Positions 20,239-23,914 of a DNA stretch of 64,000 nt are shown here, piece by piece. Position numbers and translations under genes: made by a program. Within the stretch, counting starts at the first letter, position 1. Every line of letters starts with the position of its first letter. Source of the DNA: Bdellovibrionales bacterium (GTDB lineage Bacteria; Bdellovibrionota; Bdellovibrionia; Bdellovibrionales; JAUICD01); contig OZ253553.1 in NCBI GenBank assembly GCA_965262715.1, forward strand, positions 1,888,001 to 1,952,000, written 5' to 3'. The notes beneath the pieces are model-generated. The model did not search any database. It was not told where the DNA came from and worked only from the letters and a program-made list of their open reading frames with translations.

Positions 20239-23200
20239 TTATTTATTTTCCATATCGAGGAACTCAAAACAACCTGCTTTCAATAGATGATCTAAAGCCA
20301 GTGTAGCATCACTAAGTATCTCTTTATCATCACTGTTTAAGCCAACTTCTAAGATGGCTCTTGTCTCTTCTAAAGGTAATATGACCCCATTTATAAGTGG
20401 ACGGGTTAATTTCTCAAAACACGTCATCACTTGTTTTGTGTGATCTATCAGTATTTTATGTAATATTGTTATATACCACCAAATATCTAAGCTATTCTCT
20501 GTGTTTTGGCAAATATCTAAAATCTTAGAATATTGATCCAGCCTCCATTTAATATCTAAACATTCAGCTTCTAACCAAAGGCTAAACTTTTGAAACTCTG
20601 ATGGTTCTTTGGCCTTTAATCTCCAATTAAAAAATTCTATAACTCTTTTCGTCATAGCTTCATCAAATTCATTGCTATGATCTTTTAATTGTCGTCCTAT
20701 AAGATCAAAAAGAGTTTTCCGATACCCCTTACCTGTCTTTTGATAAAACTTTTCAAGCAAGCTACCTTTAAGAAGATATACCTCCCTTAAATAATAAATC
20801 CATAAGTGCCTTCCAAGATCATCAATCATATCATTATGAGTTGCATCTTTATCGCTTTTTATTTGCATTAAATTTTCAACAACAAAAGTAAAGTCATCCT
20901 TAAACACTTTAAAAATCTTTGTATGTGGTGATTTTTGAAGGACCATACCAAATGCAACTTGCCATTTTTCTAGATATTTTTGTGGAAAGAGTTTTGATTT
21001 ATTTTGTACTGTCCATTCTTCATCAGTATTGTAAAGATATCCATAACAATCGCCTAAAATAGCATATTCTGGCAATGTGAGGGACGGCTTGGCATCAGCT
21101 TTAAAACGTTTTTCTAAAAAAGATAAAATCTCTAGAGCTTTTTTTGGATTGTACTTTTTAAGATAATATCCAAATTGAATTAAATGTTCTAAAGCTCGAC
21201 TTCTTGTATTATTTATAGCTTCATGGAGACAATCATTTGGATTTTTCAATACCTTGTCCTGATCTACTCCAAAAAAAGAAACAGCTGGCTGAACTTGATC
21301 TAATCCTTTGTCAAATTGAGTGCAGAGCATTTTTGAAATTTCGATAATATGCTGTACTATTTGTTCTTCAGGGGTTATATTTTGCTTACTTATTGCTTTA
21401 ATACAATCTTCTATAAAATCAACCACAGCTCTACGTGAACTTTGCCAGCTAGGATTTTCTTTTGACTCATCACTATATGTCAAATCTTTCTGATGGTCTT
21501 CATCATTATGAGAAAGAATCCATTTACAAAAATTAAACCATTGGTTTAATTGATCTATAGGGTCTATTATACTTATTTGTCGTCCATTTAGCATCGCTTT
21601 TATATAAATAGGTCGTTGAATTTGATCTCGGTTTTCAATCCAAAAATTCAGTCTTTTAGCATCTTGACTGATCTGTTCTTGAAAAACAATTTGAAATTCC
21701 TTTGCAAGTCCATCAATATTGATTTTTTTAAAGGTTTCTCTGTCAAAACTTTCATTTTCCCATTGGTTGATATAATTTAATAGCTCTTGATCTGGAAGTT
21801 TTGCAAGTTCTTCTTTTGATTTTGGGCTATAATGAGATACATAGCCAACATGTAAATCACGAATAGGTGAATAATCTTCATCTGAAATTTGTTTTGCATT
21901 TTTGGCTTTTAACTGTTGAAAAATCTCTTTGTACTTACCAAAAAGTACTGATTTAAAAGGATTAAACTGCATGCTTTGAAAGTAGTCTTTACGTTTTTTA
22001 AAATCATCTTCAGTAAATTCTATTTGTCTTAGTTCACACCATCTTTCAAAATTCTCTTGAGATGGGCCTTTTAAGACTTGATTCAAAATTGTTGTTAGCT
22101 CTTCCTGAGTTAATAGTTCATTGCCAAAATGTACAATAGCAGATTGTATCATTTTTTGTAGTTCATAATCATATTCATGTTGATGATAATCTTTGTATTT
22201 TAAAATTTCTTCACGTATCCATGTTCTGGTTTGCTCACTTGGATATAAACTGTATAGATATTGTCTGATTCTTTGAAAGACACTCCAACGTGACCTTCTT
22301 AAAAGTTCATCCAAGTTTTGAATGTAATCAGGATTTTTTTGATATACTTTCTTACAAACAGAAGCAAATGTGAAAATAAGATGTTCTTTTTGATTTGGAG
22401 AACCACTACGTAATTGATCTATTCTTGGACACCATATATAGGAAGGATCATCATCATTTATTTCATCTGGATGCATTGTGAGAGAGAATACTTGATTTAC
22501 TATATCGATTAAAGTACAAGCCACATCATAAGGTGCAATTTCTATCAATAGAGGAACTCCTTTTGTAAGGATTTTAGAATATTCCCATTCATTAAAACTT
22601 GGTTTTGGTTCTAATTTGATTTCTGGGTATTTTAATTGTTGCTTTTGTGTGCTGTCATCTTGTGATAGAAATTCTGAAACAGTCATATTATTGTCAAATT
22701 TTCTCTCTGCTAATCTCTTTTTTTCAATTTTTTCTTTTGCTTCAGTATCTGGTTTAAATTCAAGCAGTTTTTTCAGCAATATCAGAGCAGAGGACATTTG
22801 ATTTTCTTTTGCCCAATGTTTTAAAAGCTTTAAATAGTTATGTGATAGAAGATATGTTGTTATATTTAAACATTCGAAGGATTCATAGATTTTTGATTGA
22901 AGTCCTATAGAATATTTGACAGGAAGTTTTAATGCAATATCTATAATGCTTCGATACACTGTTGGATTATCTGTTTCAGGCAAGCTTTGTATAATTTTAG
23001 TAACTTCTTCAGGTGCTTCAATAGATACATTTTCAAGATATTGAAGTTCATGCCAATACGGTGTTTGAATGAGATTTTCTGGCAACTTTTTTACTTTAGG
23101 AGGTGATTTAAAGTATCCACGTTCTGCTAAAGGTTTAATCCATAAAGGGTTATTAAGATGAGAGAAAAAGTATTGACGCTCAACCTCTGTTTTGACTGAT

Positions 23201-23250
23201 GCTAATGCTTTTTCTATTATTTCATTCGTTGGTTGTTGCCAAGATTTCAT
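20239..23250 (-). CDS. Large alpha-helical hypothetical protein (candidate defence sensor)
   Basis: 1003-aa intact ORF; no Walker A motif or TM segment seen; W/Y-rich helical repeats; overlaps the upstream gene by 29 bp. Confidence 0.7.
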   Translation of the reverse strand: MKSWQQPTNEIIEKALASVKTEVERQYFFSHLNNPLWIKPLAERGYFKSPPKVKKLPENLIQTPYWHELQYLENVSIEAPEEVTKIIQSLPETDNPTVYRSIIDIALKLPVKYSIGLQSKIYESFECLNITTYLLSHNYLKLLKHWAKENQMSSALILLKKLLEFKPDTEAKEKIEKKRLAERKFDNNMTVSEFLSQDDSTQKQQLKYPEIKLEPKPSFNEWEYSKILTKGVPLLIEIAPYDVACTLIDIVNQVFSLTMHPDEINDDDPSYIWCPRIDQLRSGSPNQKEHLIFTFASVCKKVYQKNPDYIQNLDELLRRSRWSVFQRIRQYLYSLYPSEQTRTWIREEILKYKDYHQHEYDYELQKMIQSAIVHFGNELLTQEELTTILNQVLKGPSQENFERWCELRQIEFTEDDFKKRKDYFQSMQFNPFKSVLFGKYKEIFQQLKAKNAKQISDEDYSPIRDLHVGYVSHYSPKSKEELAKLPDQELLNYINQWENESFDRETFKKINIDGLAKEFQIVFQEQISQDAKRLNFWIENRDQIQRPIYIKAMLNGRQISIIDPIDQLNQWFNFCKWILSHNDEDHQKDLTYSDESKENPSWQSSRRAVVDFIEDCIKAISKQNITPEEQIVQHIIEISKMLCTQFDKGLDQVQPAVSFFGVDQDKVLKNPNDCLHEAINNTRSRALEHLIQFGYYLKKYNPKKALEILSFLEKRFKADAKPSLTLPEYAILGDCYGYLYNTDEEWTVQNKSKLFPQKYLEKWQVAFGMVLQKSPHTKIFKVFKDDFTFVVENLMQIKSDKDATHNDMIDDLGRHLWIYYLREVYLLKGSLLEKFYQKTGKGYRKTLFDLIGRQLKDHSNEFDEAMTKRVIEFFNWRLKAKEPSEFQKFSLWLEAECLDIKWRLDQYSKILDICQNTENSLDIWWYITILHKILIDHTKQVMTCFEKLTRPLINGVILPLEETRAILEVGLNSDDKEILSDATLALDHLLKAGCFEFLDMENK

Positions 23251-23914
23251 TTAAATTCTCCAATTTTCTTTTATACTCACCAATTGATGCAATATGTAAA
23301 AATTTATTAAGATTTTTAAAATGTTCTTCAATTTCAATTAATGTATTTTCAGAAAAATCTTTTTTTCTCAAATGTGTGTGCGTCAAAAAATAATCTTTTG
23401 CACTTTCCCATTCAATAAGAAAGTTTTTAGGAACTTTTTCTTTATCTTTATAATTCAAAAAAGTAGTAAAAAACAACTCATTAGCTTTTTCACTTCTATG
23501 ACGACCTTTTTTATGTTCTTGAACAAGGTCATGTATCTTGTCACAAACTTCAGAAGGTATCAAGTGTTCTTTAATACCATTAATTTCAAGTTCAGATTTT
23601 TGAATCAAATCGTTTTTATTTTGATTTTTAGAGAGGTCTCTCCATTTATCCTTCCACTCATTTTGAAATTCATTTACAAGTGTCACATATTGCACTTGTT
23701 CACGTTTAATACCTTTAAAATCACGAGCAAGGCCATTCATTATATCTCTACCAGCATGAGCTACAAAGGTAATGTAACCATTTGGCTTATGATATAGAAG
23801 ATGCAAGACTCCTTTATATCCATCTGCATATACAGGTAATTTAAGGACATCTTTTATCCATTTGAAAACTTGTTTTTGTTCTTTTGTGAGGGAGTTTTCT
23901 TTTTTATTATTCAT
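23222..23914 (-). CDS. Hypothetical protein (candidate HEPN-like defence effector)
   Basis: 230-aa ORF with AHAGRDIMN and FLTHTH segments; coupled to the 1003-aa gene. Confidence 0.65.
   Translation of the reverse strand: MNNKKENSLTKEQKQVFKWIKDVLKLPVYADGYKGVLHLLYHKPNGYITFVAHAGRDIMNGLARDFKGIKREQVQYVTLVNEFQNEWKDKWRDLSKNQNKNDLIQKSELEINGIKEHLIPSEVCDKIHDLVQEHKKGRHRSEKANELFFTTFLNYKDKEKVPKNFLIEWESAKDYFLTHTHLRKKDFSENTLIEIEEHFKNLNKFLHIASIGEYKRKLENLNEILATTNE

Follow-up and report, generated by a model that had tools for sequence, protein, structure and literature searches.

A 64,000-nucleotide (nt) stretch of DNA from a Bdellovibrionales bacterium (assembly GCA_965262715.1, contig OZ253553.1, positions 1,888,001 to 1,952,000; hereafter the window) carries on its minus strand two open reading frames (ORFs) of 230 and 1003 amino acids (aa) that overlap by 29 nt in the +1 frame, raising the question of whether they are one gene broken by a frameshift or a working pair, and what such a pair would do. 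An initial annotation, made from sequence alone, had proposed an undescribed anti-phage system in which a sensor devoid of a nucleoside triphosphatase (NTPase) is coupled to a separate HEPN-like effector. Both ORFs are intact, at the coordinates and with the overlap first described, and they form a conserved two-gene unit with separate initiation rather than a broken gene. Profile comparisons identify the large protein as the NTPase-less sensor common to Dsr1 and Avs7-type STAND proteins, and the pair is very probably a defence system of this sensor family; with less assurance, it is considered to defend the cell through a sensor-activated HEPN nuclease.

A conserved dual-coded overlap

Searches with the large protein returned 309 homologues, of which the 120 listed are mostly stand-alone proteins of 940–1000 aa, and searches with the small protein returned 107. 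Eighty genome loci were retrieved with the large protein, mostly from metagenome-assembled genomes (MAGs) named Poribacteria, Latescibacterota and Nitrospirales. The small gene overlaps the large gene at 44 of these and the two are fused at 29, while at one they lie in frame with a stop between them, and at six the small gene is absent or the contig edge is reached. Across 46 aligned rows (45 from the loci, plus the window), the distance from the large gene's start codon onward to the end of the stop of the small gene is exactly 29 nt in 45, and 26 nt in the remaining row. A Shine–Dalgarno (SD)-like word precedes the large gene at 34/37 intact loci, compared with 1/37 at a control position 60 nt upstream. 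Read in two frames, the overlap gives the effector its C-terminal peptide (family consensus EILEE[TA]N) and the sensor its N-terminal one (MKSWKKPT). At a further 80 metagenome loci, retrieved with distant homologues and including a few duplicates, the same overlap and both peptides recur in 25, with proteins 20–25% (about 22%) identical to those of the window; 16 show a second type of split with an overlap of ~8 nt, four have a separate SIR2 gene upstream of the sensor, and the remainder comprise 20 fused, eight cut-off and seven variant or artefactual loci.

Because the overlap, the large gene's own start codon and the SD recur in 44 genome and 25 distant metagenome loci, the two genes constitute a conserved unit. 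Both are under purifying selection, with median ratios of nonsynonymous to synonymous substitution (dN/dS) of 0.24 for the small gene and 0.19 for the large gene in 79 related pairs, none exceeding 0.5. Nor is the overlap an assembly error, since contigs of two studies match across it without difference: one, from a sequencing run that is possibly the source sample, equals window positions 20155–24200, and the other equals 22769–24200, each with zero differences. The idea of one gene interrupted by a recent frameshift, raised at the outset, or by misassembly could draw on the existence of fused homologues, the closest being 58% identical to the large protein; it is refuted by the recurrent overlap and the exact contig matches, sits poorly with the dN/dS values, and retains next to no probability.

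Programmed +1 frameshifting within the overlap, with a fused effector–sensor as the working form, would fit frames that lie one base apart, the strong conservation of the overlap DNA and the existence of fused relatives. It is nevertheless very improbable, as the conserved SD and ATG give the large gene a start of its own, the second split type has a different overlap, and a change of frame within the overlap would sacrifice one of the conserved peptides, although natural re-fusions preserve both. In the split clade, two fused members carry a tandem copy of the 20-nt overlap core (15/20 and 13/20 identical, against a background of 5 ± 2 of 20; a third, degenerate case reaches 9/20), and this duplication places both peptides in one frame, a pattern that points to re-fusion from the split state. 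As these natural re-fusions duplicate 20 nt and keep both peptides, they suggest that both are needed.

Two further observations concern the overlap and the division of these genes. Short contigs of other organisms, from several runs and some at high depth, match just the 39-nt stretch 23213–23251, and their loose end resembles the upstream sequence of homologous loci, indicating that DNA-level conservation of the overlap extends across hosts. In the phylum of a Poribacteria MAG locus (L003), one distant subfamily of HEPN-fused sensors is often divided in mid-sensor into ~553 + 582 aa; this division is recurrent across genomes (for example L235:3762-7123, with many matches of 550 + 580 aa) and may be a lobe-level split.

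A Dsr1/Avs7-type sensor and a predicted HEPN-like effector

The motifs picked out in the initial annotation are present: the sensor, which starts with MKSW, carries YFFSHLNNPLW from residue 27 and ends in LDHLLKAG, and the effector contains AHAGRDIMN at residues 52–60 and a late FxxxxH (F176-x4-H181). As had been noted, the large protein has no Walker motif, with neither a Walker A pattern nor a P-loop family match found by pattern search and Pfam scan. When 39 of 375 homologous proteins, picked for diversity, were scanned against PADLOC, 35 matched Dsr1 outside its SIR2 part, the best match (E 1.5e-50) covering residues 10–953 of P0373, a stand-alone homologue with the same MKSW start; close split-clade loci likewise match Dsr1 (E 9e-13). 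P0373 as query led to plasmid genes whose annotations read ATPase or SIR2 protein. With the database size set to 5e9, a profile of close homologues aligns with four archaeal Walker-A STAND proteins, putative Avs7 members, over their C-terminal ~900 residues (E 7e-26 to 3e-14), and it also matches a Streptomyces fusion (NBC_00212; E 1e-27) and the sensor of a Vibrio split SIR2 pair (E 5.5e-8). By eye, HEPN, PIN, SIR2 and STAND members resemble one another in their terminal segment, and residues ~976–993 of the window's sensor are the probable counterpart, by analogy, of the Avs7 helix that moves on capsid binding. An NCBIfam scan of 23 homologues gave nothing, and searches of PDB sequences with alignments of both families and with P0373 gave no significant match. 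The kinship to Avs4 proposed in the initial annotation was abandoned: the Avs4 of the same island (NCBIfam NF041815, above cutoff) scores -2.3 bits on the family profile, the large protein matches no Avs4 model, and there is no detectable sequence relation between the two.

The small protein, scanned alone, gave no significant match in Pfam, PADLOC or NCBIfam. Its structural model (predicted local distance difference test, pLDDT, 84) consists of helices, with an insert separating core helices 2 and 3, and in both structural comparisons the top rank goes to HEPN toxins (Z 7.9 and 8.2, further HEPN entries being near), in a Z range common for helical bundles. In one comparison HEPN entries rank 1–3 (Z 7.8–8.2, root-mean-square deviation 3.3–3.5, 114–119 residues aligned), and in the other they make up many of the top 25 rows. 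His181 lies 33 positions from the end of the aligned range, as against 36 for H107 of 7AE2, which is consistent at the level of aligned ranges, with no residue-level alignment. Both Arg56 and His181 are invariant in 108/108 close homologues and in 102/102 split and fused effector domains, His181 is nearly invariant in the 46-row alignment, and no other column among those listed is invariant across the 102 domains. Residue 57, within model helix 47–67, is D or E in 102/102 domains, so that the conserved acidic residue of HEPN helix 2 is present. In the model, this Arg/acid/His set sits where HEPN active-site residues have been described. A K or R at position -8 from the His is confined to the close clade (97/108) and is not family-wide; a DUF4145-like R-x7-H motif via K173 was dropped, not being kept outside that clade.

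A second line of comparison leads to the Pfam family PF18165 (pP_pnuc_1). This is not among the 25 families listed, out of 33, for the 108 effector-family members scanned, the curated cutoff not being reached, but fused relatives match it with a best E of 4.7e-12. The profile–profile link between the small protein and PF18165 is weak (HHalign probability 62%) and is bridged by intermediate loci; an Atlas lead to the same family scored 0.89. HEPN ribonucleases (RNases) act independently of metal and require dimerisation. Conservation and the structural model together favour a HEPN-like nuclease, with RNase activity likely. With HEPN-MNT toxins (7AE2/7AE8), AbiA and the sacsin HEPN domain, the predicted effector, judged from its model, appears to share a four-helix core, the insert between helices 2 and 3, a His where helix 3 ends and an acidic residue in helix 2, but it differs in having no Arg 4–6 residues before the His, in placing its invariant Arg in helix 2, and in having no MNT partner.

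Several points weigh against these assignments. The window's large protein, alone, has no match in Pfam, PADLOC or NCBIfam, and it is 15–20% identical to the STAND and SIR2 members compared, for which reasons its ligand may differ from that of its relatives. Two Bacillus SIR2 fusions are not significant with the narrow profile (E 63 and 390), reaching E 4e-21 with a broader one, and the sensor homology is profile-based and transitive. The PADLOC model PDLC04166 scores an unsplit protein with a HEPN-like rather than a SIR2 N-terminus (L236) at 854 bits, such that it may be mixed and not a pure SIR2-Dsr1 model, and the other two PADLOC Dsr1 models give weaker matches (best E 4.5e-10). For the effector, the Z scores near 8 are unremarkable for helical bundles, Foldseek returned nothing for the model at E ≤ 0.001, and the canonical HEPN Rx4-6H motif is absent, position -5 from the His being F or L. 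Some HEPN families are listed with the His and without the Arg (PMC3710099).

Against known systems, the pair resembles Dsr1 in its homologous ~900-aa sensor without a STAND NTPase and in placing the effector N-terminally; EcDsr1 senses capsid protein (PMC13581612, accessible passages). It differs in that the HEPN-like effector comes from a separate overlapping gene and the SIR2 NAD-hydrolysing enzyme (NADase) is missing; Pfam and PADLOC scans gave no SIR2 match in either window protein, the SIR2 gene of the island belonging to SIR2-HerA. With Avs7 it shares the sensor region, in the family profile match to the C-terminal ~900 aa of Walker-A STAND proteins, but not the NTPase or the Cap4 DNase, and without an NTPase the ATP-driven tetramer assembly of Avs7 cannot apply. 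The same domain combination is found in a HEPN-like RNase–sensor fusion of Streptomyces sp. NBC_00271, modelled in the accessible passages of PMC13581612, and the fusion of Streptomyces NBC_00212 has the same invariant Arg and His as the window effector, although these Streptomyces fusions are one chain rather than two and carry a different effector subfamily. The pair is neither Dsr1 (no SIR2) nor Avs (no NTPase), but by analogy would work like them.

The family is not, as first supposed, undescribed. STAND-less systems, among them Dsr1 and a HEPN-like protein of Streptomyces, have the same sensor as Avs7 (Lee et al. 2026, PMC13581612, in the passages available), and the family, a HEPN member and split forms have already been mentioned bioinformatically in the accessible text of that paper, the split proteins in its methods. 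The sensor is thus known, which goes part of the way towards refuting the initial proposal on its own terms, whereas the searches made brought up no tested or named system in which HEPN takes this two-gene form. Literature searches on the sensor family turned up no study besides Lee et al. and none on the split form with HEPN, and in their results neither was the dual-coded overlap described nor any HEPN or split member tested; searches on pPIWI-associating nuclease, DUF4020 with phage, pP_pnuc_1, and pPIWI-RE with nuclease and HEPN returned no paper. The readable supplementary files of PMC13581612 contain neither 'HEPN' nor 'split', although its Supplementary Table 8 and figures may list the class, and the available passages of PMC3702460 hold no description of pP_pnuc_1.

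Effector exchange and a proposed mechanism

The sensor family carries a range of effectors. Of 57 fused representatives, 45 have a HEPN-type domain at the N-terminus, 10 a PIN domain and two one of the small-protein type, and the same sensor family is also paired with SIR2 genes. When 11 architecture labels are mapped on a tree of 119 selected sensors, 46 changes are counted, compared with a shuffled mean of 70 and minimum of 62; effector types form clean clades, and sister sensors 82–85% identical bear different effectors. The window's sensor is nearer to fused proteins (59% to P0002) than to most split ones. In the nine inspected pairs, in which close sensors bear different effectors, identity begins at the FF..L.NP.W motif (residue 28) or just past it, from which it is concluded at sequence level that the first ~26 residues of the sensor move with the effector; these residues are inferred to dock it. 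Effector–sensor fission, as far as the gene arrangements indicate, is not limited to HEPN. Split Dsr1-like pairs, with a SIR2 gene followed by a stand-alone sensor gene, occur at L122, L158, L198 and L216; that on a Vibrio coralliilyticus plasmid (L122:3043-6784) overlaps by 8 nt, and the SIR2-paired sensor of L158 is 85% identical to the HEPN-paired sensor of L167.

In the passages of PMC13581612 available, the major capsid protein triggers SeAvs7 and EcDsr1, activation by HK97-fold capsids being demonstrated for SeAvs7, Se2Avs7 and EcDsr1. The bilobed sensor, a sharply bent TPR structure, clamps newly made HK97-fold capsid protein, shifting a conserved C-terminal helix and activating the effector, with recognition resting on shape rather than single contacts. 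In resting Avs7 the C-lobe of the sensor sequesters the effector, and use of EF-Tu is predicted for just one Avs7 clade. The portion of preprint PMC12803255 available describes NADase, nuclease and kinase effectors and possible effector exchange. DSR1 is described as poorly characterised and is reported to inhibit phage without cell death (PMC10952713 and PMC13464706, in part). EcDsr1 protected against few phages in the accessible text of PMC13581612, a point that counts against the reading set out next.

By extension from these relatives, the following sequence of events may be proposed. The large protein would serve as the Dsr1/Avs7-type sensor and the small protein, as a separate chain, would be its HEPN-like nuclease effector. 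The overlap would couple their translation and encode the two peptides by which the chains dock, so that a sensor–effector complex is, on balance, expected to be pre-formed. The trigger is probably a phage capsid protein: on binding newly made capsid protein the sensor would close, bringing docked HEPN subunits into an active dimer that would cut RNA, whereupon the infected cell would arrest or die and the infection be aborted.

An alternative of the toxin–antitoxin kind would have the small protein constitutively toxic and held inactive by the sensor until a phage protein binds and releases it. The effector is never found alone (33/33 genomes, see below), tight translational coupling would suit an antitoxin, and the sequestration of the effector by the resting Avs7 C-lobe (PMC13581612, in part) is in keeping with it. 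This arrangement is judged unlikely, as most relatives are covalent fusions and two split-clade members have been re-fused, ruling out release by dissociation there, and the toxin gene comes first in the operon. There is likewise only a slim chance that the pair defends as a family member but responds to another protein of phages or mobile elements, or carries an effector that is not an RNase. The low identity of the large protein to its STAND and SIR2 relatives, the non-canonical HEPN motif and the 4,422 clusters at 50% identity leave room for such diversification; on the other side, capsid protein activates two tested members that are distant from each other and differ in effector (PMC13581612, accessible passages), and the invariant Arg/acid/His set occupies the described HEPN active-site positions.

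Returning to the sensor-activated HEPN nuclease, a more specific version is advanced tentatively, at less than even confidence. Here an NTPase-less capsid receptor would signal, through a docking interface of both chains encoded in one 29-nt stretch, dual-coded and kept from ~22% protein identity up, to a nuclease encoded in trans whose HEPN site is non-canonical, with its Arg in helix 2 and its His past helix 3; the overlap with the first ~26 residues would form a plug-in cassette swapping HEPN, PIN and SIR2 effectors.

Distribution, defence context and significance

The pair is common in places and patchy in others. Of 121 genomes sampled in the phylum to which locus L003 belongs, 33 have the small gene, with a sensor gene directly behind it in all 33, some in decay. 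Among the window's kin the large gene is present in 2/61 genomes, and a congener has both genes at 45% identity in other surroundings. No relative was found in phage records or IMG/VR, no RNA dataset was listed as carrying the sequence, and 401 genomes of one class yielded no full SIR2-sensor Dsr1. In genome G000, a second sensor-family gene survives as a 44-aa relic of its C-terminus (C1:807667-807792; L094:9668-9793), next to a transposase-like gene and close to a 1741-aa Walker-A protein without a PADLOC match at 1e-6.

Enrichment in defence islands, a check proposed at the outset, was borne out. Up to two ORFs per side at the 37 intact loci (140) gave 116 neighbours after removal of 23 near-duplicates and one self fragment, and 120 control ORFs were taken from 30 regions ~500 kb away in 15 genomes carrying the pair. 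PADLOC matches (E ≤ 1e-15) number 22/116 among neighbours and 4/120 among controls (Fisher p 1.2e-4, kin not being independent); two neighbour matches and one control match look unspecific. Restriction–modification (R-M) genes account for 15 of the 22, and R-M-like genes alone stand at 15 vs 3 (p 0.003). A type III R-M mod or res gene often adjoins the pair (L005, L007, L013, L014, L017, L052, L053, L065), which at L017 and L052 lies between mod and res. Taken with the Dsr1 profile and the HEPN model, this supports the proposal of an NTPase-less sensor with a separate HEPN-like effector in a defence island.

The features of the locus are collected in Table 1, the island genes being named from Pfam, PADLOC and NCBIfam scans of the window proteins. 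The pair does lie in the region between abi/hsdS and hsdR, as first described, but the large gene and hsdR are not direct neighbours: between them stand a RhuM-like fragment and two plus-strand genes, an SLT transglycosylase-like gene and an overlapping 253-aa gene (18831-20184). Contigs of related copies stop at 20184, which suggests an insertion boundary. Elsewhere in the window, hsdM has an N-terminal HTH_3 domain (30775-32562) and a group II intron reverse transcriptase lies just past Avs4 (40475-41872). Promoter and terminator scans were at chance level (27 vs 24.9 expected). In genome G000, C1:2198524-2198863 holds four tandem tRNA-like calls, spaced 88–89 nt immediately before tRNA-Trp, with a 4-base anticodon without assignment.

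Table 1. Features of the effector–sensor locus (window positions)
Feature	Position	Strand	Description
Effector gene, 230 aa	23222..23914	-	HEPN-like helical bundle, predicted nuclease, remote relative of Pfam pP_pnuc_1
Sensor gene, 1003 aa	20239..23250	-	Dsr1/Avs7-type sensor without NTPase or fused effector
Dual-coded overlap, 29 nt	23222..23250	-	Effector C-terminal peptide and sensor N-terminal peptide
Shine–Dalgarno-like GGAG	23258..23261	-	7 nt upstream of sensor gene start, within effector gene
Arg56 codon	23747..23749	-	Within the R-[DE]-x-x-[NE] motif of core helix 2; predicted to be catalytic
His181 codon	23372..23374	-	Just past helix 163-178, the place of the catalytic His in HEPN domains; predicted catalytic
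First ~26 residues of sensor	23173..23250	-	Moves with effector module; inferred docking segment
Sensor C-terminal segment, ~residues 976-993	20272..20325	-	Probable counterpart of Avs7 terminal helix
Surrounding defence island	14867..39309	-	Avs4, type I R-M hsdM/S/R, Fic, SIR2-HerA, Abi_2/PD-T4-5-like gene

The pair escapes Pfam, PADLOC and NCBIfam in the window's genome and yet occurs in over a quarter of the genomes sampled from one phylum, so that defence inventories of such bacteria probably miss it. The passages of PMC13581612 available do not explain the means by which Dsr1-type sensors, having no NTPase, activate an effector, and report a test of no HEPN, PIN or split member. The two-chain form lets sensor and effector vary separately and makes assembly and release separable. 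The conserved dual-coded overlap, together with re-fusion by 20-nt duplication, allows the splitting and rejoining of an immune receptor to be traced, which is rare. If the pair does prove to be an NTPase-less capsid receptor with a plug-in cassette, it would represent a minimal switch, modular and triggered by capsid protein, and would offer a clean model of effector activation in STAND-less systems.

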